From the IMG/VR virus record IMGVR_UViG_2939521961_000018: DNA of 64,000 nucleotides. One strand, written 5' to 3'. A program made the position numbers and the translations under genes. Every line of letters begins with the position of its first letter. The stretch's first letter is position 1. Shown piece after piece: positions 25,624 to 64,000 of this stretch. Source of the DNA: a virus. Taxonomy: Duplodnaviria; Heunggongvirae; Uroviricota; Caudoviricetes. The notes under the pieces are model-generated. The model saw nothing but the letters and a program-made list of their open reading frames with translations. It did not search any database and was not told where the DNA came from.

Positions 25624-25666
25624 TGAGGTGTACTGGCAATAGCGGACACTACCATTTGTTCTTTTT

Positions 25667-26485
25667 TTAAGCAGCCATCTGATGATATTTTTCCCTGAAG
25701 GCTGCCGGGGAGATATTCCCCAGACGAGAGTGACGACGCTGACGATTGTAGAAAATCTCAATGTATTCCCGTATTACTGAGATGGCTTCATCCCGGTTAT
25801 TAAAACGATAGTGGCTCAGGCTCTCATTTTTCAGCGTTCCCCAGAAGCTTTCCATCGGAGCGTTGTCGTAACAGTTACCTTTACGCGACATTGATGTTTT
25901 CAGACCAAACTGCTCCTGTATGACCCGGTAATCGTATGCGCAGTACTGTGAACCTCGATCAGAGTGGTGGATTAGCCCGGCAGGTGGGCGCTGGCTCCTG
26001 AGCGCCATAAACAGAGCTTTACCTGTCAGCTCTTTTGTCATGCGCTCTCCCATGGCGTAGCCGACAATTTCGCACGTATAAACATCTTTGATGCCAGCGA
26101 GGTACAACCATCCCTCCTGTGTGGCAACATACGTCAGGTCCGCCACCCAGACCTGATTTGGTGCTGTAGGAGCGAACGTCTGGTTCAGCAGATTTGGCGC
26201 AACTGGCAGATTGTGGTTCGAGTTCGTAGTCGCTCTGAACTTGCGTTTCTGCTTACAGCGTAGCCTTAGCTCCTTACGAAGACGTGCCAGTCGGTCACGA
26301 CCAACGATGATGCCATTCTCTGCCAGCTCCGTCTGGAGCCGCCGGGTTCCATATGTTTCGCGAGTGCGGATATGTGCCACCTTAATCTCCAGTTTTAGCC
26401 GCTCATCACTTTGTTTTCTGTCTGAGGGTTCATGCTGTACCCAGTTGTAATAACCGCTCCTGGATACACCAAATACCTGACACAT
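25667..26485 (-). CDS. IS600 OrfB
   Basis: Identical protein to 3198-4016. Confidence 0.9.
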   Translation of the reverse strand: MCQVFGVSRSGYYNWVQHEPSDRKQSDERLKLEIKVAHIRTRETYGTRRLQTELAENGIIVGRDRLARLRKELRLRCKQKRKFRATTNSNHNLPVAPNLLNQTFAPTAPNQVWVADLTYVATQEGWLYLAGIKDVYTCEIVGYAMGERMTKELTGKALFMALRSQRPPAGLIHHSDRGSQYCAYDYRVIQEQFGLKTSMSRKGNCYDNAPMESFWGTLKNESLSHYRFNNRDEAISVIREYIEIFYNRQRRHSRLGNISPAAFREKYHQMAA

Positions 26486-26520
26486 CGCTTCAATGGGAAA
26501 TTGTTGTCGCCATTGTTCGA

Positions 26521-26823
26521 TTAACGCGTATTTTTCAGCGACTCCTGTGCAAAATACGCTGTTGCTTTTTTTAATATATCTCGCTCAAGGCGAGCTTCAT
26601 TTAACGCCTTACGCAGTTGCAGAATTTCAGATTCCAGTTCAGCCACCGTGCGGGAACCAGGAGTACCGAGCCCTTTTCTGGCGGCGGTAACCCATTGTCC
26701 TAAAGTGCCTTCAGGAAGAGATAATCGGGAAGCGCCTTCACTGATCGAAAGTTGATTTTCAAGAACCGTTCTGACAGCTTCGGCTTTGAACTCTTTAGAG
26801 TAACGTTGGGTTTTTCTGCTCAT
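26521..26823 (-). CDS. IS600 OrfA
   Basis: Identical protein to 2860-3162. Confidence 0.9.
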   Translation of the reverse strand: MSRKTQRYSKEFKAEAVRTVLENQLSISEGASRLSLPEGTLGQWVTAARKGLGTPGSRTVAELESEILQLRKALNEARLERDILKKATAYFAQESLKNTR

Positions 26824-27306
26824 TATTAGCTCCTTCTGATGCCATTCTATTTCAGGAAGGAGTGTCCGTTAAACTCAGGCTACCTCATATCTCCTTCGTT
26901 ACCGATTAATTCTTTCATCTGACGAATGAATTCTTCGTCTGACCAGTTATCTGTGAAACTCATTTCCTGCGATACCACGGAAGGTTGATAGCTGATTTCA
27001 TCGCTTTATTTGCTTCAAGCCACATTTTTGAATCACCAATAAATCTGGCTATTACTGCTTTGTTTTGTGCCGCACGAAGCATCTGGTGATTAATGGCTAT
27101 TTCATTGCGCATAACGCCTCCAGTTGTTTCTTTGCTGCTCTAATTAATTGTTTAACTCGGCGTGATAATTCAGATTCGTGCGGGTAGAAAGCGGACATGA
27201 CGCCGCTACCCGCGAGCTGAAAGTGCATCATGGGTAACTCCTTATATTTGATTGCATAACGAAAACGCCTCGAGTGAAGCGTTATTGGTATGCGGTAAAG
27301 CCGCGC

Positions 27307-39562: not shown

Positions 39563-39886
39563 ATGAAGATGCCAGAAAAACATGACCTGTTAGCCGCTAT
39601 TCTCGCGGCAAAGGAACAAGGCATCGGGGCAATCCTTGCGTTTGCAATGGCGTACCTTCGCGGCAGATATAATGGCGGTGCGTTTACAAAAACAGTAATC
39701 GACGCAACGATGTGTGCCATTATCGCCTGGTTCATTCGTGACCTTCTCGACTTCGCCGGACTAAGTAGCAATCTCGCTTATATAACGAGCGTGTTCATCG
39801 GCTACATCGGTACTGACTCGATTGGTTCGCTTATCAAACGCTTCGCTGCTAAAAAAGCCGGAGTAGAAGATGGTGGAAATCAATAA
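39563..39886 (+). CDS. S: Holin S (lambda S107/S105 type)
   Basis: [31 protein letters not shown], dual-start Met1/Met3. Confidence 0.9.
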
Positions 39887-40346
39887 TCAACGCAAGGCGT
39901 TCCTCGATATGCTGGCGTGGTCAGAGGGAACAGATAATGGACGGCAGAAAACCAGAAATCATGGTTATGACGTCATTGTTGGCGGAGAGCTATTCACTGA
40001 TTACTCCGATCATCCTCGCAAACTTGTCACGCTAAACCCAAAACTCAAATCAACAGCCGCCGGACGTTACCAGCTTCTTTCCCGTTGGTGGGATGCCTAT
40101 CGTAAGCAGCTTGGCCTGAAAGACTTCTCTCCCAAAAGCCAGGACGCTGTTGCGCTGCAGCAGATTAAAGAGCGTGGCGCTTTGCCGATGATTGATCGCG
40201 GTGATATTCGTCAGGCAATCGACCGTTGCAGCAATATCTGGGCTTCACTGCCGGGCGCTGGTTATGGTCAGTTCGAGCATAAGGCTGACAGCCTGATTGC
40301 AAAATTCAAAGAAGCGGGCGGAACGGTCAGAGAGATTGAGGTATGA
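39870..40346 (+). CDS. R: Endolysin R (lytic transglycosylase)
   Basis: 158 aa [34 protein letters not shown] matches recalled lambda R. Confidence 0.9.
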
Positions 40347-40780
40347 GCAGAGTCACCGCGATTATCTCCGCTCTGGTTATCTGCATCATCGTCTGCCTGT
40401 CATGGGCTGTTAATCATTACCGTGATAACGCCATGACCTACAAAGAGCAGCGCGATAAAGCCACATCCATCATCGCTGATATGCAGAAGCGTCAACGTGA
40501 TGTAGCAGAACTCGACGCCAGATACACAAAGGAGCTTGCTGATGCTAACGCTACTATCGAAAGCCTTCGTGCTGATGTTTCTGCTGGTCGTAAGCGCCTG
40601 CAAGTCGCCGCCACCTGTGCAAAGTCAACGACCGGAGCCAGCAGCATGGGCGATGGAGAAAGCCCAAGACTTACAGCAGATGCTGAACTCAATTATTACC
40701 GTCTCCGAAGTGGAATCGACAGGATAACCGCGCAGGTTAACTACCTGCAGGAGTACATCAGGACTCAGTGCCTGAAATAA
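40343..40780 (+). CDS. Rz: Spanin inner-membrane subunit Rz
   Basis: N-terminal TM then coiled coil; overlaps the R stop. Confidence 0.85.
40536..40727 (+). CDS. Rz1: Spanin outer-membrane lipoprotein Rz1 (embedded in +1 frame of Rz)
   Basis: Lipobox LVVSAC, proline-rich mature region; fully nested in Rz. Confidence 0.75.
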
Positions 40781-52002: not shown

Positions 52003-53421
52003 ATGCCTATTCAGCAACTTCCGCTTATGAAAGGTGTCGGCAAAGACTTTAGAAACGCCGACTATATCGACTATCTGCCAGTGAATATGTTGGCTACACC
52101 CAAAGAAATCCTGAACAGCAGCGGATATCTTCGCTCATTCCCGGGCATTGCCAAACGTTCTGATGTGAACGGCGTATCGCGAGGCGTCGAGTACAACATG
52201 GCACAGAATGCTGTTTATCGCGTGTGTGGTGGCAAACTGTATAAGGGCGAAAGTGAGGTCGGTGATGTTGCCGGAAGTGGTCGCGTATCAATGGCGCATG
52301 GTCGAACATCACAGGCGGTAGGCGTTAACGGGCAACTGGTCGAATACCGCTATGATGGCACGGTTAAAACCGTCTCAAACTGGCCTGCAGACAGCGGGTT
52401 TATGCAGTATGAGTTAGGTTCTGTTCGCGACATTACGCGTTTACGTGGGCGTTATGCGTGGTCAAAAGACGGCACTGATTCATGGTTTATCACTGACCCT
52501 GAAGACGAATCGCATCCTGACCGCTACAGCGCACAATATCGAGCCGAGTCTCAGCCTGACGGCATCATCGGCATCGGAACATGGCGAGACTTCATCGTCT
52601 GCTTTGGTTCATCGACGATTGAATATTTCTCCCTGACGGGGGCAACCACCGTTGGTGCCGCTTTGTATGTCGCACAGCCATCGCTGATGGTGCAGAAAGG
52701 CATTGCCGGGACTTACTGCAAAACGCCGTTCGCCGATTCGTATGCGTTCATCAGCAATCCGGCAACAGGTGCGCCGTCTGTGTATATCATCGGCTCCGGT
52801 CAGGTATCACCAATCGCCAGCGCGAGCATTGAGAAAATTCTTCGCTCCTACACTGCTGATGAACTGGCTGATGGTGTGATGGAATCGCTGCGATTTGATG
52901 CGCATGAACTGCTGATTATCCACCTTCCGCGCCACGTCCTCGTGTACGACGCATCTTCAAGCGCCAATGGTCCGCAATGGTGTGTGTTGAAAACAGGCCT
53001 GTATGACGATGTGTACCGCGCTATCGACTTCATTTACGAAGGAAATCAGATAACGTGCGGCGATAAGCTGGAATCGGTTACCGGGAAATTGCAGTTCGAT
53101 ATCAGCAGCCAGTATGGGCTACAGCAAGAACACCTGCTGTTTACTCCGTTGTTCAAAGCGGATAACGCCAGATGCTTTGATCTGGAGGTGGAATCATCGA
53201 CGGGTGTTGCTCAGTACGCTGACCGCCTGTTCCTCTCTGCAACCACTGACGGCATAAATTACGGGCGTGAGCAGATGATTGAGCAGAATGAACCGTTCGT
53301 TTACGACAAACGCGTTTTGTGGAAGCGAGTAGGGCGCATCAGGAAAAATGTTGGCTTCAAACTGCGCGTTATCACTAAGTCGCCTGTCACTCTGTCTGGC
53401 GCTCAGATAAGGATTGAGTAA
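52003..53421 (+). CDS. Tail hub protein (P22 gp10-like)
   Basis: 472 aa, same length and position as recalled P22 gp10. Confidence 0.55.
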
Positions 53422-54269
53422 TGGCGGATTCGAATCTCAATGTGCCGGTAATCATTCAGGCTACACGGCTCGACACATCAGTCCTTCCACGCAATATCTT
53501 CTCGCAGTCGTATCTGCTTTACGTTATCGCACAGGGTACTGATGTTGGTAATGTGGCTAACAAGGCCAACGAGGCCGGACAGGGCGCTTATGACGCACAA
53601 GTCAGGAACGATGAGCAGGATGTGATTCTCGCTGACCATGAGCAGCGAATTTCTGCTGCGGAAGCAACGCTTGTTAATCATGAGGAGCGAATCAGCCAGG
53701 CAGAATCAACTCTTCAGGAACATGAAACGCGAATCGCTCAGAATGAAAGCGATATTGCGTCGCTTGATACCAGAGTTCAGTCGCTGGAATCGCAGGTTTC
53801 AGACCATGAATCGCGCATTGATGCTCTGGAGTATGCCACTACTCGCAAGAAGTCAGAGGTTGTTTACTCTGGCGTATCTGTAACCATCCCGACAGCGCCG
53901 ACCAACCTTGTTAGCCTGCTGAAAACGCTCACGCCGTCATCAGGCTCGTTGGCACCATTCTTCGACACCGTTAACAACAAGATGGTTGTGTTCAACGAGA
54001 ACAAAACCTTGTTCTTCAAGCTGTCGATCGTCGGGACGTGGCCCAGCGGAACCGCCAACAGGTCAATGCAACTAACATTTTCCGGCTCTGTTCCTGACAC
54101 ACTGGTAAGCAGTCGCAACTCGGCGACAACGACCGATAACATCCTGTTAGCTACGTTCTTCAGCGTGGATAAAGACGGCTTTCTTGCCACAAATGGCAGC
54201 ACGTTAACCATTCAGTCAAATGGTGCGGCGTTTACTGCCACAACCATCAAGATAATCGCGGAGCAGTAA
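53421..54269 (+). CDS. Tail needle (P22 gp26 / Sf6 needle type)
   Basis: Trimeric coiled-coil heptads ([44 protein letters not shown]) plus C-terminal knob; 282 aa. Confidence 0.6.
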
Positions 54270-54724
54270 TGATTCAGTTCAAACCAACGCGAAACATCGA
54301 CCTGATAGAAGCAGTCGGAAATCACCCTGACATTATTGCCGGAAGCAACAACGGTGATGGATACGACTACAAGCCTGAATGCCGTTACTTTGAGGTTAAC
54401 GTGTACGGTCAGTTTGGCGGCATTGTTTACTATCAGGAAATTCAGCCGCTTACATTCGATTGCCACGCCATGTACCTGCCAGAGGTTCGTGGATTCAGCA
54501 AGGAAATCGGGCTGGCGTTCTGGCGATACATTCTGACTAACACCACCGTTCAGTGCGTCACATCGTTCGCTGCGCGCAAATTCCGCCACGGTCAGATGTA
54601 CTGCGCAATGATTGGCCTTAAGCGTGTAGGAACCATCAAGAAATACTTCAAAGGCGTGGATGACGTGACGTTTTACAGCGCCACACGCGAAGAACTAATC
54701 GACTTCCTGAATCACGGGAGATAG
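54269..54724 (+). CDS. Head/tail assembly protein (P22 gp14 position)
   Basis: Synteny only. Confidence 0.4.
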   Translation: MIQFKPTRNIDLIEAVGNHPDIIAGSNNGDGYDYKPECRYFEVNVYGQFGGIVYYQEIQPLTFDCHAMYLPEVRGFSKEIGLAFWRYILTNTTVQCVTSFAARKFRHGQMYCAMIGLKRVGTIKKYFKGVDDVTFYSATREELIDFLNHGR

Positions 54725-54726
54725 CT

Positions 54727-55419
54727 ATGTTATATGCATTTAAGCTGGGCAGAAAACTGCGCGGCGAGGAACCTTATTGCCCTGAAAAAGGCGGGAAAGG
54801 TGGCAGCTCTGATAAAAGCGCAAAGTATGCAGCAGAAGCTCAGAAGTATGCCGCAGACCTGCAAAATCAGCAGTGGCAGACGATCATGAAAAACCTTGCT
54901 CCGTTCACGCCGCTTGCGGAGCAGTATGTTAACCAGCTTCAGAATCTTTCCAGTTTAGAAGGTCAGGGGCAGGCACTTAATCAGTATTACAACTCTCAGC
55001 AGTATAAAGACCTTGCAGGTCAGGCTCGTTACCAGAGTCTTGCTGCTGCGGAGGCGACGGGTGGACTTGGTTCGACAGCCACAAGCAATCAACTGGCTAC
55101 GATCGCGCCGACACTCGGTCAGTCTTGGTTATCAAATCAGATGAGCAATTACAACAATCTGGCAAACGTTGGGCTTGGTGCACTGCAAGGTCAGGCAAAC
55201 GCCGGGCAGACGTACGCCAACAACATGAGCAGCATTGCACAGCAAAGCGCAGCACTTGCCGCTGCTAATGCCAATAAACCATCAAGTCTTCAGACTGCAA
55301 TTAGCGGCGGCACATCTGGTGCGATTGCCGGTGCAGGTCTTGCCAGCCTTTTGGGAACATCAACGCCTTGGGGCGCTGGCATTGGTGCTGGTATCGGATT
55401 GCTTGGCTCGTTGTTTTAA
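54727..55419 (+). CDS. Ejection (internal virion) protein, gp7 position
   Basis: Gly/Ala/Gln-rich, glycine-zipper C-terminus; synteny. Confidence 0.45.
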   Translation: MLYAFKLGRKLRGEEPYCPEKGGKGGSSDKSAKYAAEAQKYAADLQNQQWQTIMKNLAPFTPLAEQYVNQLQNLSSLEGQGQALNQYYNSQQYKDLAGQARYQSLAAAEATGGLGSTATSNQLATIAPTLGQSWLSNQMSNYNNLANVGLGALQGQANAGQTYANNMSSIAQQSAALAAANANKPSSLQTAISGGTSGAIAGAGLASLLGTSTPWGAGIGAGIGLLGSLF

Positions 55420-55428
55420 GGGGTAATC

Positions 55429-56835
55429 ATGGCTACTTGGCAAGGAACAAACGGCGGATTGTTGGCTGGTATCGGCGGCGTCAACTCAAACGCTCCGAGC
55501 GTAAATGACATCGGCAATACGCTTCAGCTTATCAGGCAGAACAATGATATTGATCGTTCAGGCGCTAACAATGTTGGGCTGACTGCTTTGCAAGGCCTTT
55601 CAGGTATTGCAGGGGTGTTTCAGCAGGAAAAGCAGGCTCAGCGGCAGAAAGAATTTCAGCAGGCGTACGCTAATGCTTATGCGTCTGGTGATCGCGGTGC
55701 TTTGCGTCAGTTGGCTACTCAATATCCAGACCAGATTGAATCCGTTCGTAAAGGCATGGGATTCATTGATGAAGACCAGCGTAATTCTATCGGCACCTTA
55801 GCGGCTGGCGCACGCCTTGCGTCATCGTCTCCAGAAGCAATGCAATCATGGCTGCAAAACAACGCCAAGGAACTGACTCGCGTCGGTGTTGACCCTAACA
55901 GCGTTGCTCAGATGTATCAGCAGAACCCTTCAGGATTTGGTGAGTTTGTTGATCACCTTGGAATGGCTGCTCTTGGTCCAATTGATTACTTCAATGTTCA
56001 GGACAAGATGGCTGGTCGTGAAATTGACCGAGGCAGACTGGCAGAGACAATCCGCAGCAATCAGGCTGGAGAAGCACTTCAGGCGAGAGGGCAAAACCTT
56101 TCCTATCAGTCAGCAATGACTGGGCACAATATCGCAGCACAACGCTTGGCTCTGGATCAGCAAGAGTTCGGGTTTAAGATGCAGCAAGCGCAGGAAAAGG
56201 CTCAGCAGTTGATTAGCGAAGCACCTAAGCTGTCAGTAAACATGGAAAAAGGCATCGAGACGGCTGTAAACAATGCTACAGCATCATCAAACTCAGCCAA
56301 TTCTATGAGTGCGCTTGCTCAACAGTTCAGAGCAGAAAAACCAACGACAGGTTTGTTCGGTAACGCACAGAACATGTTCGCAAAACTTACCGGAAGCGAT
56401 ACAACATTGCGTGATTTGCGCATTCGCCAAAATGCCCTTGTTAACAGTCAGGTTCTTAAATTCCTACCTCCCGGCCCAGCAACGGATAAAGACGTTGAGA
56501 TCGTTCGACAGGGTGCGCCAACTGACATGGATAACCCTGAGACGGTCGCAAGATGGCTTGATGCAATGGCAAACCTTGAGCGACGAAACGCGCAGTTTAA
56601 TGAGTTTAAAGCCGAGTGGATGAGCGCGAATGGCAACCCTGGACAATCGCGTAATGGCGGTCAGATATTGGGGTTGGATGTTAAAAAAGGTGAATCATTG
56701 GGGAGTGCCGTTAAGCGGTATATGTCAATGAATACTGACGCAGCGCCAGCACAAGATTCGACACCTTCAGGAGAACCACGGAATCAGGTTGGATCATATA
56801 CCTCAAAATCAGGCATTCAATTTACGGTGGAATGA
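55429..56835 (+). CDS. Ejection protein, gp20 position
   Basis: 468 aa, synteny. Confidence 0.45.
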
Positions 56836-58679
56836 TGAAAGTAACTGCAAACGGTAAGACATTTACCTTTCCTGATGGTACGAGCACCGAAGATATTGGC
56901 ACCGCCATTGATGAGTATTTTGCTGGTCAGGCTGTTCAGCAACAAACAGTTAATCAGGCCAATAATGCACCAACACGGGACGAACCATCATTGATGCAAC
57001 AAGCTGGCGATTGGCTCACTGGTGGTCAAAGTGCAGGGCAAATTGCAGAACAGGCTGGTCGTGGTCTGGTAAACATACCATTTGACGTATTGCAGGGTGG
57101 CGCAAGTCTGATTAATGCAATCAGTCAGGGGCTTGGTGGGCCAAAAGTTTTGGATGATGTTTATCGTCCAGTAGACAAACCGACAGACCCATACGCACAA
57201 GCCGGTGAAACAATTGGTGGGTATTTAGTTCCAGGAGTTGGAACGGCAGGAAGCATGGCTATTGGATCGCTGGCAGAGGCCGCAAATCAGAAAGGCGATT
57301 TCGCACAAAATGCAGCTAAAAATGCCGGAGTTAACCTTGCCGCTCAGGGTGTTCTTTCCGCAGCAGCAAAGGGAATAGGGCGTGGAATAACGGCTATAAA
57401 AGGTGATATTGCGCCAGAAGTGGCGAAGAAAATTGCCACATCAGAATCGATGGGCGTGACACCAATGACATCTGATGTTATCCCGCCGAAAAATGCTTTC
57501 ACTCGCGGCCTTACTCAGGATGCCGAGGGGGCTTTGCTCGGGACGGGCTCAAAGCGAGCAGAGCAATATGCAACGCGTAGTAAGCTGGTAAGCAATTATT
57601 TTGACCGTTTTGGTGAGTACAACCCTGATGATGTGGTGAAATCTCTGACCACCACGTTAAGGGGGCGGAAGGATGCTGCTGGCGCTGTTATCAATGACGT
57701 CACCAATAAAATGGGTAATGCCGCAGTTGATACTACAAATACCATGAATGCTCTGAATACAGCGATCGCAAGACAGGAACGGCTTGGGACTTCAGCCAAT
57801 CAAAGCCTGCTTACATCCTTGCGTAACCTGCGTGAAGAATTAGCAAACCCTGCAACTGATTTGGATGTTACGTTTGATCTCTTGCGTCAGCACAGAACAG
57901 CATTTAGATCTAATGTTCAGGGAGATGCTATGGTCTTCCCCAACCAGGCAAAAGCAGCTACCAATATGGTAGAGAATGCAATGTCAAAAGACCTTCGTAA
58001 CGCAGTTGCAAAAAACCTCGGTGCGTCAGACGCAGCAAAATACCTTAAAGCAAATTCCGATTATGCAAACGTTTATAATAAGGTGCTTAATAAAAACATT
58101 GCTAACAAGCTCAACAAGGCAAGCAGTGAAGCCAGTCCTGAACTTATAAATACTGTTGTATTAAGCAGAAAACCATCTGACGTGAAACGAATCTGGAGCG
58201 CATTGGATGATAAAGGGAAAGATGCTATGCGTGCAGCTTACGTCAGCAAAATAGCGGAAAAGGCCGGTGACTCTCCAGCCAAGTTCATCACTGAAGTTAA
58301 TAAGCTGAAATCTCAGTCAGGTGGTGAAATTTACAACACTATTTTTTCTGGAAAGCACATGAAAGAGCTTGATTCTCTTCATGAAGTTCTACAGAAAACA
58401 GCAAGGTCAGACACCGCAAATGTAGTAACTCAGACTGGGCAATCGCAAGCCAACAGGATAAGGACGATTGGCGCAACTGCGACTCTTGGCGTATCAATGG
58501 GGCTTGAGGCTGGTTTCGGTGCAATGATGCGCTTGTATGAGTCCAAAGCAGCAAGGAATGCTCTCTTACGTTTGGCAAACACCAAAGCAGGAACACCAGC
58601 CTATGAAAGAGCGCTAAATAATGCTGCAAATGCGATACGCCCTATACTCTCAAGCCAAATTACAGCAGAACAGCAATAA
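56832..58679 (+). CDS. Ejection protein, gp16 position
   Basis: 615 aa, synteny. Confidence 0.45.
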
Positions 58680-58693
58680 AAGATAAGATGTAA

Positions 58694-59179
58694 CTACCTG
58701 ATATTACTGCTACTGTTGCATGTTACCGTGTTTCCAAATCCTGAATTGCAGTTTGTATATGTGTCAACGCGTGTTGGGTAAGGTTGAGTTATAACAGGCT
58801 GGCGCGCTTTTTGCTCGATCGCTTGCATTGTGTTTACAGCCTGATAATTCAATAAAGCCTGCTGGAATGCTTGGCTTTGTGCTATTTGTTGGGCTTGTTC
58901 TTGGCTTTGTAATTGAACATAAAGATTCTGAAGCTCAAGTCTTGCCTGTGCGTCACTTATCTTGCCTTCATCGACACCTTTCCCGAGCATCTTTGCAGCA
59001 AGGACATACAGCTTAGGTGTTGGTGCTGATGCCATGCGTGAGTCGTTCTTCACACTGGCATCAAGGCAATTAGCCATATCGCTAAGCTTTTGATAGCGTT
59101 GTTCGCAACTTGCTTGATAGTCACTTACTTTTGCGCATCCAACCAGCAGAAACGGGATAATTAACAGTGATTTTTTCAT
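58694..59179 (-). CDS. Lipoprotein moron in the immI-equivalent region
   Basis: Signal peptide plus lipobox MKKSLLIIPFLLVGCAKV; Gln-rich coiled-coil C-terminus; opposite strand to the virion genes. Confidence 0.5.
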   Translation of the reverse strand: MKKSLLIIPFLLVGCAKVSDYQASCEQRYQKLSDMANCLDASVKNDSRMASAPTPKLYVLAAKMLGKGVDEGKISDAQARLELQNLYVQLQSQEQAQQIAQSQAFQQALLNYQAVNTMQAIEQKARQPVITQPYPTRVDTYTNCNSGFGNTVTCNSSSNIR

Positions 59180-59249
59180 ATGGTTAACTCTCCTTAGTTT
59201 TTCACAGGATATCATGAAGGCAATGCCATTTTAGCCGGAAACTAGATTT

Positions 59250-59516
59250 CTATGTTTCCTTTTTATTATTGCTATACATGGTCTTAAGCGTTTCAAAAAC
59301 CATTTTCTTAACCATATCAGATTGTTGTTCTGCCATACGCTCTGCATCATCAATGTAAACGGATGCAGAGCTTTGTTTAGCCAACGATTCTTCAATCGCT
59401 GCAATTATCTCTGAGTTCAGCGACCTGTTATTCATCTTCGCGCGCTGTTTAATTTTCGCGTGGAGTTCATGCGGAAGTCTCAAGTGAAACTGCGCCTCGT
59501 CGTATTTGCTGTACAT
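59250..59516 (-). CDS. mnt: Mnt-like ribbon-helix-helix repressor
   Basis: RSLNSEIIAAIEESLAK...DDAERMAEQQSDMVKKMVFETLK aligns with recalled P22 Mnt; start at MYSKYDEAQF. Confidence 0.65.
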   Translation of the reverse strand: MYSKYDEAQFHLRLPHELHAKIKQRAKMNNRSLNSEIIAAIEESLAKQSSASVYIDDAERMAEQQSDMVKKMVFETLKTMYSNNKKET

Positions 59517-59637
59517 CCTTGATGCCTCACCAGTTGGGTGGAATGGCATCGTAACCTACTGGATAAATACTCAATAGTACCATTTCGGTATGCAATCACA
59601 TCATGGTTGCATCATATCATTCTTCTGGAGCAATGAA

Positions 59638-61761
59638 ATGTCAGATATCACCGCAAATGTTGTGGTCAGCATGCCTTCGCAACTCTTCACTATGTCTCGC
59701 TCTTTTAAAGCCGTAGCCAATGGAAAAATTTATATCGGTAAAATTGACACTGACCCGGTAAATCCAGAAAACCAGATTCAGGTTTATGTGGAAAACGAAG
59801 ACGGTTCTCACGTTCCTGTTTCGCAACCAATCATCATTAACGCTGCTGGTTACCCTGTATATAACGGACAGATTGCCAAGTTCGTAACTGTGCAAGGCCA
59901 TTCTATGGCTGTTTATGATGCATACGGTGCGCAGCAGTTCTATTTTCCGAATGTGCTAAAGTATGATCCAGATCAGTTTAAGGGCAATCTCCTGAGCGAA
60001 GATCACTCACTTGGCGACTCTCTAGTCATGCATAACCCACAGTTTGTCGATAGCACATCGACCATTCTCTCAAAAAAGCTAACTATCGACCTGAGGACGC
60101 TTACAGACTACGGGTTTGCTGAGGGAAACACCGGTGCTCAGAACAAAGCTGCATTTCAGAAGGCTATTGATGATGCTACGTTGCCAACTGAGATTGTTAT
60201 ACCAGAGGGGGCGTTCATTGTTGACCCTGGTATTACGATTAAGAATACTGTCACCATGATACGAGGTGCTGGCGCATATCAGTCCAGAATTTTCTCTACG
60301 GGTACAGCGGCACCGATAATCACGCAACAAGATGGGGTAATTACGTTCTGCGAGTTCAGGGACTTTGGTCTTGACGGAAATGGCTACGCAGCTAACGGCA
60401 TCAGTCTTACTGAAGCCAACCACATTAAAATAGAAAATATTGACGTGGTTAATACTAATAACAACGCAATATTAGTTAACGGTTACTCCATTGACATCAT
60501 TGGGTGCCGGTTGTTTCAAAACGCCGGTAACGGTATTAATGTTGGTGGTTACTGCAATAATATTAATATAATCAACAGCCGTATCTATGGTAACGGAGCC
60601 GGTGGAGTTTTACTTACGCCAGCTTACGCTGAGGGCGGTATGAGCGTCAGAGTTAATGGCAACAATATAGAGCAAAATAAGTTCTACGGACTTTTGGCTT
60701 ACGGGGTTAAAGGCCTTAACCTTGATGCTAACTATTGGGAACGCAACGGTGAGATTGGTTACCCGTATAGTGTACCTGAGTCTATTACAGTACGTGCGGA
60801 TATCCACCTTATCGCGAACAATTTTACATTAATTCCTGACCTTTCAAAAATTAATGATACCGTATCTATTCGCGGGAATCAGCAGACCGCGATTGGCTAC
60901 GCCAGCGCGCTACCTAACCAAGACGGATTTATTTTCACGAACTATGCGAAAAACCTGACGATTGAAAATAATCAGTTATTAGACGCATCGAAAGTGAATA
61001 ATTTATTAGCAATGTACCACAATAATCTTTCGTCCAAAGTTACTGACAGGCTATATCTTGCCAACAACACAGTGAACTCCATCGGATACGTTGGTAGTTA
61101 TGACCCGGCGACACAAAACCCTGACACTGCGCATTTAATAGATATTGCGAACAGAGAGTTAACTGCTAACTATCTTGATCGAAATATGTTGCTCTGGACT
61201 GCGGCATCTGGAACTACAGGAACATTGATAAAAACTCAAAACATCTATGCTGGTAATTATTCATTCTTAGTTACGACAGGAGATAGAGTTTGGGGACGAA
61301 CGATAGACCTCAACAAATCACCAGAACTAAAAGGGAAATTTGTATGGTTTGGTGCGTGGGTCAATGACCAGGGATCAGCGTCAAAACTTATGTTTATAAT
61401 TAATGGTGCAGGACAAACAGACTCTACAGCACCTTTAGCTGGTAATGGGAAATGGAGCTATGTTAGTTGTGGTGTGTATATATACGAAACTGATACAGCT
61501 ATAAATGTTGGTATAAGAAATTATGGTTCAGGAAATGTACTCATAAACTCACCTTCTCTATGTGCATATGGAATGCCATCAAACGCGTTGCAAGTTGAAA
61601 AAACAACATTTTATCTTTCGTCAGTACCTACATCCGGTTTCTGGGATATAGGTGAGCGTGTTATCAATAGCGCACCTGCTTCAGGACAACCAAAGGCATG
61701 GACATGCAATATTCCAGGTGGGCCAGGAACCTATTCTTTCTTATCAGAGGGAAACTTTTAA
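59638..61761 (+). CDS. Tailspike: P22/Sf6-type head-binding N-terminus with a divergent beta-helix receptor-binding domain
   Basis: N-terminal ~115 aa [60 protein letters not shown] as in Sf6/P22 tailspikes; remainder not recognisably the Sf6 endorhamnosidase. Confidence 0.8.
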
Positions 61762-61831: not shown

Positions 61832-62974
61832 ATGGAAAGAAAAACAAATAAGTTAGACTCTATTCAAGTCCTTAGAGGGATCGCGGTACTTCTAGTCATT
61901 GCGTTTCACTTTAGAGTATATTTAAATGGAGTGTATGCCCAAAAGGACTTGGGCGACATTCTTTTTGGTATAGGTGAGGTTGGTGTTGATATATTCTTTG
62001 TTATAAGTGGATTTATCATTACTTATTCTTCAATGAATAAGGCAAAAAACCGGCCAATGGTGTTTGCTGCTAAGCGTTTTTTTAGGTTGTACCCTGTTTA
62101 CTTTATAATCCTTACTCTGGCTATATACCTCAACTATGAGGCAATATATACATCATCACAAATAATAAAGAGCTACTTGCTCATACCAATTGACTATAAT
62201 TTTATAGGGCCATGGTCAGGTTATAGTATAATAATACCTGCATGGACACTAACGTATGAAATTTGGTTCTATGTGGTTTTCTTTTTTTCATTATGCATCA
62301 GCCATAAATATAGAACTGCGATCGCATCATTTCTTCTCATCATTATTTGCGTTCTTGGTCAACTGTACTTTCACGGAGATGTTTTTCTAAATCCTATCGC
62401 GCAACCGCCATCTGGTGATGGAATTATTCGTAATCTGGTATTTGTATCAAATCCAATAATATATGACTTTATTTTGGGGATGATTATTGCAGAGGCCTAC
62501 ATTAGGCTACCTTCTAGACTTATAAATAAAATGCCTGTTGTTCAATTTCTTAATATTACATTAGCGATTGCCTTGCTTTTTTTATGTCTAGGGTTAAGGA
62601 ATGGACCTGGAATTGTAGCATGGGGGGCTTATTCATTTATGATTATAGCCCCAATAGTCCTTATTTCTAAGTGTAGGGATGTATATAGAAATAAAATTCT
62701 AACGTATGTTGGTGAAATATCCTATTCACTTTACATTAATCATATGGTTGTATACAGTCTTGCTGTTTTATATCTCAAACCGTACGGGGTATTGGATAGT
62801 AAAGGATTTGGTGTTTTTCTAGCTATGATTTGCGCTACTTTTATTATATCAATCATATCTTATAACTTTATTGAAAAACCATCAGTATCCATAGGGCATG
62901 CCATCGCTCGTAGAATGCAAAAAAAATCAGATGTATCTTCAATTAAAACTGAATCCGTTAGAGAAGCACCTTGA
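61832..62974 (+). CDS. Acyltransferase-3 family membrane protein, O-antigen O-acetyltransferase-like
   Basis: 380 aa, about 10 TM segments, N-terminal LRGIAVLLVIAFHF, very AT-rich; directly downstream of the tailspike as oac is in Sf6. Confidence 0.7.
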   Translation: MERKTNKLDSIQVLRGIAVLLVIAFHFRVYLNGVYAQKDLGDILFGIGEVGVDIFFVISGFIITYSSMNKAKNRPMVFAAKRFFRLYPVYFIILTLAIYLNYEAIYTSSQIIKSYLLIPIDYNFIGPWSGYSIIIPAWTLTYEIWFYVVFFFSLCISHKYRTAIASFLLIIICVLGQLYFHGDVFLNPIAQPPSGDGIIRNLVFVSNPIIYDFILGMIIAEAYIRLPSRLINKMPVVQFLNITLAIALLFLCLGLRNGPGIVAWGAYSFMIIAPIVLISKCRDVYRNKILTYVGEISYSLYINHMVVYSLAVLYLKPYGVLDSKGFGVFLAMICATFIISIISYNFIEKPSVSIGHAIARRMQKKSDVSSIKTESVREAP

Positions 62975-63218: not shown

Positions 63219-64000
63219 TCACTCCACCTTTTCATCAAGCCAGTCCGCCCACCATTGCATCATTTCTCTGCGCTTATCGAGATACTGAGCATGGTTGTAA
63301 ATACCGCGCACAGATCCGCCGTTGGCATGTGCCAGTTGCACTTCAATAGCGTCAGCAGGCCATTCGTGCTCGTTCATAATCGTGCTGAATTCATGCCTGA
63401 ATCCGTGACCGCTTTCCAGACCCTCATAGCCGATTTGTTTGATCACAAGTAGCACCGCGTTCTCGCAGATTGGCTTCTTCTTATCGTTGCGCCCGGCAAA
63501 AACAAATTCTGATACTGGTTTGGTGATGGAGCTTAACGTAGTGAGAAGTTCAACCACCTGGTCCGACATCGGGACAACATGAATTTTGCGTCCCTTCATC
63601 ACATTGGCGTCAATGGTGATAATCCTGTTTTCAAAATCGACGTTCTTCCATTGCATGGAACGAAGCTCTTTTGTTCTTAGGGCTGTGTAGCGTAAAACCT
63701 TGGTGGCAATGAGCGATACGATACTTCCTGAAAATGTTGCCAGTGCTTTATTGAATGCCGGGATCTGGTCTGCAGGAAGAAACGGGAAGTTCTTCTTGCG
63801 GTATCCCCTCATGGCGTCAGCAAGGTCAGGTGCCGGGTTATATTTAGCCCTGCCGGTGACAATAGCGTAACGGAAAACCTCGCCGCATCTTCTGCGGGCT
63901 TTATTTGCTCGCTCCATTGCACCGCGATCTTCAAATCTGCGGATTACTTCCAGCAGTTGCATCGGCTCAATATCCTGAATTTCAAGGCCGCCGATGATAG
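63219..64000 (-). CDS. P4-type tyrosine integrase, partial (5' end beyond window)
   Basis: LRTKELRSMQWKNVDFENRIITI, HGFRHEFSTIM, RGIYNHAQYLDKRREMMQWWADWLD; the frame stays open upstream of the first ATG to the window edge. Confidence 0.85.
   Translation of the reverse strand, partial: IIGGLEIQDIEPMQLLEVIRRFEDRGAMERANKARRRCGEVFRYAIVTGRAKYNPAPDLADAMRGYRKKNFPFLPADQIPAFNKALATFSGSIVSLIATKVLRYTALRTKELRSMQWKNVDFENRIITIDANVMKGRKIHVVPMSDQVVELLTTLSSITKPVSEFVFAGRNDKKKPICENAVLLVIKQIGYEGLESGHGFRHEFSTIMNEHEWPADAIEVQLAHANGGSVRGIYNHAQYLDKRREMMQWWADWLDEKVE

Follow-up and report, generated by a model that had tools for sequence, protein, structure and literature searches.

The 64,000-nucleotide stretch analyzed here (IMG/VR record IMGVR_UViG_2939521961_000018, hereafter the window) carries a P22-like (Lederbergvirus-type) prophage of Escherichia coli O26, integrated at argW. 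Between gene 16 and the tailspike gene of this prophage lie a lipoprotein gene and a homologue of mnt, and the evidence supports this slot as the equivalent of the P22 immI region, also called the 'ant moron' position, holding Mnt and a lipoprotein moron. With somewhat better than even confidence, we propose that the slot is a reduced ant moron, a remnant of immI, consisting of two separable modules: a lipoprotein moron with an exclusion role and an orphan mnt cassette.

Gene Content of the immI-Equivalent Region

The gene order at the tailspike end of the prophage is gene 16, lipoprotein, mnt, tailspike, O-antigen acyltransferase, and IntS. The lipoprotein gene (58694–59179, minus strand) encodes a 161-aa precursor and matches phrog_6067 (1.6e-110; WP_000749284.1 in the Prokaryotic Genome Annotation Pipeline, PGAP). 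The mnt homologue (59250–59516, minus strand; PGAP WP_000287055.1, 267 bp) encodes 88 aa. It combines an N-terminal Arc-like ribbon-helix-helix domain (Pfam Arc, PF03869, E = 1.1e-14, residues 18–60 of the long open reading frame, ORF) with a C-terminal tetramerisation helix (Pfam Repressor_Mnt, PF11423, E = 3.9e-12, residues 68–92 of the long ORF) and shares 47% identity with P22 Mnt over 76 aa.

No meaningful tblastn match to P22 SieA, orf59a, Arc, or Ant was found in the whole window, even at E ≤ 10, and nothing better than E = 2.5 was found for Ant. The intergenic gaps measure only 70 bp (lipoprotein–mnt) and 121 bp (mnt–tailspike), so a hidden ant pseudogene does not fit, and the mnt–tailspike region has no space for the sar antisense RNA. 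None of the features of a functional P22 immI, namely ant under Mnt control, arc together with sar, and a strong Pant overlapping Pmnt, was found here. A first-pass annotation of the window had placed a Mnt homologue in this slot with no arc or ant (nor sieA) and had suggested a TBLASTN search for a remnant of ant; the domain matches and searches bear this out, and no remnant was detected.

Compared with P22 immI (sieA-orf59a-mnt-arc-sar-ant), the region likewise lies between gene 16 and the tailspike gene and shares an mnt gene in the same orientation and divergent from the downstream gene, a prophage-expressed envelope gene adjoining gene 16, and an operator placed after the same CTCAATAG motif. 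It differs from P22 in lacking arc, sar, ant, orf59a, and sieA, in the decayed Pant hexamers, and in the DNA-contact residues of Mnt and the operator sequence, neither of which is that of P22. Additionally, a predicted outer-membrane lipoprotein is present in place of the polytopic inner-membrane SieA.

Survey of Lipoprotein-Bearing Loci

In total, 93 loci bearing the lipoprotein gene were surveyed, including 80 IMG/VR contigs as well as genomes and phages; the tailspike gene was visible in 90 of them. This sample is redundant, and E. coli makes up most of it. The mnt type of the window without ant was found in 41 of the 90 loci, four of which have extra DNA before the tailspike gene. Another mnt type without ant was found in 23 loci, and neither mnt nor ant in nine. 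The remaining 17 loci contain ant or a fragment of it, with a complete P22-type mnt-arc-ant in only two. The lipoprotein-mnt-tailspike layout of the window is the commonest one in the survey, and the arrangement is ordinary. A scan of GTDB for relatives, with one genome per species, yielded only 5 loci.

In three of the four loci with extra DNA, this DNA contains an HNH/AP2-type homing-endonuclease gene encoding 179–180 aa, located after the Mnt operator and ahead of the tailspike start (L024, 2969–3508; L038, 3990–4532; L049, 3993–4532). At the insertion junction, the first five codons of the tailspike gene (MSDIT) occur twice.

Similar arrangements have been described previously. The slot between gene 16 and the tailspike gene was named the hyper-variable 'ant moron', and phages ST64T, ST104, and Para1 hold only mnt and one unknown gene there (Villafane et al., 2008; PMC2629481). 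Phage L likewise has mnt only (Zaworski et al.; PMC8022706). In the records of Sf101, IME10, VSe13, and Gally, mnt is directly divergent from the tailspike gene, with arc and ant absent. Sf101 and IME10 are close to the window in having a Mnt that is about 91% identical (92% for Sf101 gp14) and an mnt–tailspike spacer that is about 97% identical, but they lack the lipoprotein gene, and mnt abuts gene 16. Phages L, ST64T, and ST104 also retain mnt without arc or ant; unlike the window, they carry another small gene (orf62) and a Mnt closer to that of P22. The view that a Mnt without an antirepressor to control is unusual, expressed in the first-pass annotation, is thus contradicted by 64 of the 90 loci surveyed and by the published P22-like phages having only mnt.

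Features and Distribution of the Lipoprotein

The lipoprotein ORF is open over 58694–59215 (minus strand), which would give 173 aa, the length initially reported. A start at Met13 (59179) is almost certain, because AAGGAG lies 10 nt upstream, the homologues across genera all begin with MKK, and the PGAP annotation agrees. Thus, the presence of a lipoprotein moron upstream of mnt holds, while its length is 161 aa. The signal peptide is MKKSLLIIPFLLVG, followed by the modified Cys, and the lipobox LLVG/C fits the pattern [LVI][ASTVI][GAS]C. Among 31 divergent members of the family, at least 90% have the lipobox Cys. The residues at positions +2 and +3 are Ala and Lys; Asp at +2 was found in none of the 30 remote homologues listed, nor in any alignment row of the closer homologues. 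Since Ala and not Asp occupies +2, we infer that the protein is sorted to the outer membrane.

The protein consists of a helical N-terminal domain (Cys25/Cys38), a Gln-rich linker, and a C-terminal two-Cys hairpin (Cys144/Cys154). The conservation of both Cys pairs suggests two periplasmic disulfides, which would probably stabilise the lipoprotein. Gln accounts for 34% (15/44) of residues 84–127. In the AlphaFold2 model, residues ~18–95 are helical with a predicted local distance difference test score (pLDDT) of ~80, followed by low-confidence helices and a C-terminal beta-hairpin. The 'Gln-rich coiled coil' described previously can therefore be retained for its Gln content, while the coiled coil is not backed by the model, in which the helices of this segment have a pLDDT below 50.

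The match to phrog_6067, a family of 'unknown function', covers residues 1–161 of 161, and the same family is matched by all 31 members of the homologue alignment. The profile search recommended in the first-pass annotation was run and returned this family only: no Pfam, NCBIfam, PADLOC, or PDB sequence match was found with the lipoprotein alone or as a profile. A match to GspK is spurious (18.8 bits, with a cut-off of 130). No characterisation of the phrog_6067 lipoprotein was found in the literature searched. A spanin or other lysis role was ruled out, as the lysis cassette is located elsewhere (39563–40780) and the lipoprotein gene is antisense to the late operon.

Homologues of the lipoprotein form 94 clusters in Enterobacterales, found in Escherichia, Citrobacter, Serratia, Cronobacter, Klebsiella, Pectobacterium, Yersinia, Morganella, Providencia, and Tatumella. 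Wherever the context is readable, the gene belongs to a P22-like prophage and is convergent with gene 16. In prophages of Morganella and Yersinia, no other gene separates gene 16 from the tailspike gene. The same position next to gene 16 was observed in Providencia, Tatumella, and all 80 IMG/VR loci, whatever the gp16 type, the tailspike type, or the other moron content. The gene runs opposite to the late operon, in the slot that sieA has in P22. A tblastn search with P22 SieA (type A query) found no SieA in the 93 lipoprotein loci; locus L196 has SieA and a related Mnt, with the lipoprotein absent. The ratio of nonsynonymous to synonymous substitution rates (dN/dS) of the lipoprotein gene is 0.04–0.07 against diverged alleles at dS of 0.21–0.58, indicating strong purifying selection.

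With the profile search, the family grows to 244 clusters (at 50% identity). Most are lipoproteins of 125–140 aa with the N-terminal domain and C-terminal Cys hairpin in common, and the lipobox Cys and four further Cys residues are conserved across the family. A match to a housekeeping family had been considered a possible objection to a phage-specific role. Remote relatives (24–46% identity) do occupy ordinary chromosomal neighborhoods, but the wider family is equally unannotated. Because these relatives sit among ordinary chromosomal genes, the phage lipoprotein looks to have been recruited from a cellular lipoprotein family, itself unannotated. Remote homologues with 34–41% identity were found in L100 (6208–6633), L101 (9001–9411), and L102 (2783–3181). 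The neighborhoods of the remote homologues are near uvrC/udg, between dsbB/holE-like genes and ycgN/minCDE (Pectobacterium), and after the genes for homoserine dehydrogenase and threonine synthase.

Expression of the Lipoprotein Gene

The leader of the lipoprotein gene (59180–59249, minus strand) contains the AAGGAG ribosome-binding site (59190–59195) and a candidate extended −10 element, TGATATCCT (59206–59214), which overlaps the ATG of the 173-aa reading. An upstream block of ~45 bp, CATG[AG]TATCCTG..AAAACTAAGGAGAGTTAA, comprising TG-n-TATCCT and the ribosome-binding site, is common to loci that are unrelated further upstream. A promoter-like site also precedes the Morganella copy, whose only neighbor there is the tailspike gene. 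As judged by these motifs, the lipoprotein gene probably has a small promoter of its own. No terminator is evident after mnt; only a weak hairpin, GGAAAC..GTTTCC, without a T-run was found at 59237–59259, and the lipoprotein gene may also be read through from mnt.

Expression data are available for GALLYPH_13, the 96%-identical orthologue in prophage Gally of the adherent-invasive E. coli (AIEC) strain LF82, where the lipoprotein is present in a layout different from that of the window. In lysogeny broth (LB), its value was 70, compared with a prophage median of 15.6 (PMC9928086, S1 table). It was the second most expressed Gally gene in LB, after the repressor, and was 4.5-fold above the prophage background (PMC9928086). 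In Dulbecco's modified Eagle medium (DMEM) and macrophages it reached log2 8–10, with the adjacent injection genes at log2 2.5–4 (PMC9928086, S1 table); the log2 fold change was 2.55 (q = 5e-27) (PMC9928086). The orthologue, transcribed from a repressed prophage, appears to behave as a moron.

A second moron lipoprotein of 139 aa (MKRIIGVVAGAILLSGC...), divergent from the phrog_6067 lipoprotein, was found in Gally (L002, 4120–4539) and in 11 more survey loci. On a reading of its sequence it is possibly PEGA-like. In the LF82 RNA-seq data its gene, GALLYPH_14, is more strongly expressed (log2 ~10–11); it lies upstream of the tailspike gene and is co-directional with it.

The mnt Gene, Its Operator, and Promoters

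The mnt ORF is open over 59250–59549 (minus strand), and its likely start is Met12 at 59516, as in the PGAP annotation and that of the VSe13 homologue. Gln9, His11, and Arg13 of the encoded protein align with His6, Asn8, and Arg10 of P22 Mnt, which we take to be its DNA-contact residues. These replacements fit an altered specificity of Mnt. The ORF is intact in all 41 loci with the mnt type of the window (W-type), with 94–100% protein identity.

The spacer between mnt and the tailspike gene was aligned by eye with the annotated P22 sequence. In P22, the order is TATATT-CTCAATAG-GTCCACGGTGGACCT, and in the window, TAAATA-CTCAATAG-TACCATTTCGGTATG. On this alignment, the 17-bp site AGTACC-ATTTC-GGTATG (AGTACCATTTCGGTATG) at 59576–59592 holds the place of the P22 Mnt operator after the CTCAATAG motif, with the same 6+5+6 geometry, and it is considered the candidate Mnt operator. 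It lies 46 bp upstream of the tailspike start. Locus L023 has a perfectly palindromic version of the candidate operator, CATACCATTTCGGTATG. No other copy of the site occurs in the window when up to 3 mismatches are allowed, and no second Mnt operator was found there; a TACC-N5-GGTA motif in gene 16 at 57959 is within chance expectation. In all 16 IMG/VR loci having the candidate operator, it stands beside the W-type mnt and is followed by the tailspike gene, with no arc or ant. In one of these (L175) the tailspike gene follows only after ~600 bp, probably owing to an HNH insertion. Among 19 distinct spacer variants, the part from mnt to the operator is conserved, and the sequence to the right of the site varies with the tailspike lineage, pointing to a module boundary directly after the candidate operator.

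The region homologous to Pmnt/Pant (59543–59574) was delimited by the same hand alignment, and the block is conserved in all W-type loci. The candidate Pmnt, on the minus strand, consists of TTGAGT (59569–59574), a 15-nt spacer, and TACGAT (59548–59553). The Pant counterpart, on the plus strand, consists of ATGGCA (59543–59548), a 15-nt spacer, and TAAATA (59564–59569), compared with TTGACA-17-TATATT for Pant of P22. It has 7 of 12 consensus matches, and its last −10 position is not T. In addition, no plus-strand sigma-70 promoter into the tailspike gene passed a consensus scan of the region. Judged by its hexamers, the P22 Pant counterpart is decayed here. An alternative candidate for the mnt promoter is an extended −10 element, TGGTACTAT, on the minus strand at 59574–59582, inside the operator; VSe13 and L023 retain its TG and T-A-x-x-A-T pattern. 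With either promoter candidate, the transcript would begin at the ATG at 59549 or downstream of it, in support of the 88-aa form of Mnt.

The spacer had been described as a palindrome-rich region of about 120 bp. This could not be upheld, since inverted-repeat counts in 59517–59637 are within the dinucleotide-shuffle expectation: the observed count was reached by a fraction of 0.15–0.21 of the shuffles at all stem settings. An imperfect inverted repeat, ATGCAATCA..TGGTTGCAT, a predicted RNA hairpin on the plus strand, is located at 59590–59612 in the lineage-variable part of the spacer and is missing from L001, L023, and L030. The predicted RNA fold of 59585–59640 has an energy of −13 kcal/mol.

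The Mnt of Gally is of a different type; in published data for this phage, mnt is transcribed and can be induced 40-fold. The same data show co-induction of mnt, the tailspike gene, and the following gene in macrophages while the late operon is silent, which indicates some late-independent transcription of the mnt–tailspike corner.

Proposed Roles and Alternatives

In the proposed explanation, the lipoprotein would be made by the lysogen and not during lytic growth. Our committed guess, by analogy, is that it excludes superinfecting P22-like phages. It would act after adsorption, either on outer-membrane penetration or on assembly of the trans-periplasmic conduit of gp7, gp20, and gp16, and would be a positional and functional substitute for the inner-membrane SieA. 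The other module, the cassette of mnt, operator, and Pmnt, would be left over from the loss of arc-sar-ant. Mnt, with its contact residues altered, would bind the 17-bp operator at 59576–59592, regulate its own synthesis, and silence the remaining rightward transcription, with no antirepressor to control. Because the P22 ant promoter is decayed here, Mnt is most likely an autoregulated orphan.

Superinfection exclusion by the lipoprotein is a plausible analogy, drawn from the slot shared with sieA (Leavitt et al., 2024; PMC10883804), the gene neighborhood, the predicted compartment, and the expression. An envelope role of some kind for a gene expressed in the prophage is favored by the position in the sieA slot of P22, the predicted outer-membrane sorting, the purifying selection, and the transcription of the Gally orthologue in the prophage state. 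SieA and the lipoprotein occupy the same slot in the same orientation. SieA has its own promoter in P22, and a candidate one was found for the lipoprotein. Both are expressed from the prophage (for the lipoprotein, this was shown for the Gally orthologue), and the two never co-occur in the loci surveyed. They differ in that there is no sequence similarity between them and that exclusion by the lipoprotein is hypothetical. The lipoprotein can also be compared with Llp of T5, Cor of phi80 and N15, Bor of lambda, and Ltp of TP-J34, all small envelope lipoproteins expressed early or from the prophage; no sequence or fold relation to them is detectable, and the protein of the window has instead a helical domain, a Gln-rich linker, and a Cys hairpin. 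A broader proposal, which we put forward only tentatively and regard as doubtful, is that the phrog_6067 lipoprotein is a widespread and unrecognised exclusion or envelope-remodelling factor. It would act from the outer membrane or periplasm on the ejection conduit or a secondary receptor, as the outer-membrane counterpart of SieA recruited from chromosomal proteobacterial lipoproteins.

Several observations weigh against an exclusion role combined with a functioning orphan mnt cassette. The lipoprotein has no sequence or fold similarity to known exclusion or defence proteins and no informative fold match, and its structure model is weak (mean pLDDT of 61, with only residues ~18–95 usable). 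The same lipoprotein allele occurs alongside very different gp16 types, and this lack of co-variation gives no pointer to gp16 as the target. GALLYPH_13 fell just below the 5-fold moron cut-off of the authors and was therefore not scored as a moron (PMC9928086). Its induction in DMEM and macrophages fits a role in host adaptation equally well, and the three remote relatives with readable context are chromosomal and outside prophages. As for mnt, the P22-homologous Pmnt has a poor spacer of 15 nt, the right half-site of the operator is changed from GGTA to TGTA, GATA, or GGCA in several loci (the L029 group of 5, L087, and L037), which suggests relaxed constraint on the site of an orphan repressor, and deletion of mnt in Gally had no effect on survival in the single assay done (published Gally data).

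Some of these observations lead to other roles for the lipoprotein. It may be a factor of host fitness or lysogenic conversion, similar to Bor of lambda, that serves envelope stress, serum, or intramacrophage survival and has no phage-directed role. This possibility, less than even in our estimate, is nearly as likely as exclusion: besides the induction of the Gally orthologue, which stood at log2 10.3 at 1 h, and the ordinary chromosomal lipoproteins among the remote homologues, the protein is 100% identical in an insertion sequence (IS)-disrupted and partly deleted prophage and is common in pathogenic lineages, such as O26 Shiga-toxin-producing E. coli (STEC) and AIEC LF82. It does not, however, resemble Bor, TraT, or any virulence family, and its strict single slot beside P22-like ejection genes in many genera, in the place of sieA in P22, is more easily explained by a phage-directed role. 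The lipoprotein could also act from the periplasm and block a receptor in the outer membrane, in the way Cor and Llp block FhuA, and so stop adsorption or irreversible binding. Sf6-type phages use OmpA and OmpC as secondary receptors, which would offer a plausible target, and the predicted outer-membrane sorting (Ala at +2) and the prophage-state expression of the orthologue fit such a role. We nevertheless consider it improbable, given that homology to Cor or Llp is absent, that 146 mature residues with a long Gln-rich linker are unlike the small compact Llp and Cor, and that no receptor is indicated by the data.

For mnt, an alternative to the autoregulated orphan is a trans-acting immunity, in which Mnt would repress the ant promoter of incoming P22-like phages with the same operator and shield the prophage from a foreign antirepressor. 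P22 Mnt acts in trans on superinfecting genomes, as established in P22 biology; mnt is intact and conserved together with the operator in many lineages; and ant-bearing immI regions occur in the same prophage population (17/90 loci). On the other hand, the Mnt type of the window and its operator (TACCATTT-GGTA) are followed by the tailspike gene and never by arc/ant in 16/16 operator loci and 41/41 W-type loci, and the ant-bearing loci have other Mnt types (33–50% identical), whose operators are unlikely to match, which leaves this explanation very improbable. A somewhat stronger candidate, though still rather unlikely, is that the mnt-operator cassette is a functionless and slowly decaying relic, kept only because the lipoprotein gene on one side and the tailspike head-binding domain on the other are conserved blocks that recombine frequently. 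The same possibility was raised for mnt of phage L by its authors (PMC8022706). It agrees with the half-site point mutations in several lineages, the tolerated HNH endonuclease gene between operator and tailspike gene, the lack of phenotype of the Gally deletion, and the decay of the Pant counterpart. A relic is harder to reconcile with the intact ORF at 94–100% protein identity in every W-type locus, with the transcription and inducibility of mnt in Gally, and with the end of the conserved block exactly after the operator, and an autoregulated orphan Mnt is preferred here.

Genomic Context of the Prophage

The window matches E. coli O26 chromosomes, and strain RM10386, like many other O26 strains, has the same 1.1 kb around the lipoprotein and mnt genes with 100% identity. 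Of 5,426 complete E. coli genomes, 106 contain at least 80% of this 1.1-kb layout, O26 Shiga-toxin-producing strains among them. In RM10386, tRNA-Arg (argW) is located just past the end point of the window.

The gene 16-type DNA-ejection protein (56832–58679, plus strand) has 74% identity to P22 gp16 and matches phrog_770, 'DNA transfer protein' (6e-279); its gene is the final late gene ahead of the moron region. The tailspike gene (59638–61761, plus strand; 707 aa) is preceded by a GGAG ribosome-binding site (59627–59630). Its product has a P22-type head-binding domain (Pfam Head_binding, 2e-67) followed by a beta-helix (Beta_helix), with 60% identity to the N-terminus of P22 gp9. An O-antigen acetylase-like gene of the Acyl_transf_3 family was found downstream of the tailspike gene (61832–62974), followed by a gene for the P4-type integrase IntS (63219–64000) that runs off the window end. 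A truncated integrase was ruled out, because the frame continues beyond the window and the gene is intact in RM10386. The tailspike-oac-int-argW order is a Sf6-like layout. Morganella relatives have an extra gene for DNA polymerase III theta (HolE-like) in the region after the tailspike gene.

A Rha-family regulator with 43% identity to P22 Rha is encoded at 40932–41495. Its gene separates the lysis genes from the terminase genes, as rha does in P22, and is the sole antirepressor-like gene of the prophage. Comparison with the intact prophage copy of RM10386 revealed an IS600 within the scaffolding gene (46726–47989), a ~1.3-kb insert at the scaffold/coat junction (48798–50103) with IS629-like ORFs of 108 and 296 aa, and another IS600 (25624–26887) flanking a ~6.6-kb deletion in the early-left arm. 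With these three damaged places, the prophage copy of the window is defective. Despite the IS damage elsewhere, the window and RM10386 agree with 100% identity over 50104–59265, which covers the lipoprotein gene and the 3' end of mnt.

Significance

The arrangement itself adds nothing new, as variable ant morons and orphan mnt genes have already been documented. The lipoprotein is worth following: besides being conserved and subject to purifying selection, it has an orthologue with transcription from a repressed prophage, lacks any database annotation, and occupies the sieA slot in P22-like prophages of at least 10 enterobacterial genera. If it aids survival in the host, it would be a candidate fitness factor. 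If the lipoprotein excludes phages, it would represent a second, outer-membrane-based mechanism of exclusion against short-tailed phages, with a bearing on phage therapy and phage typing of the pathogens that carry it.

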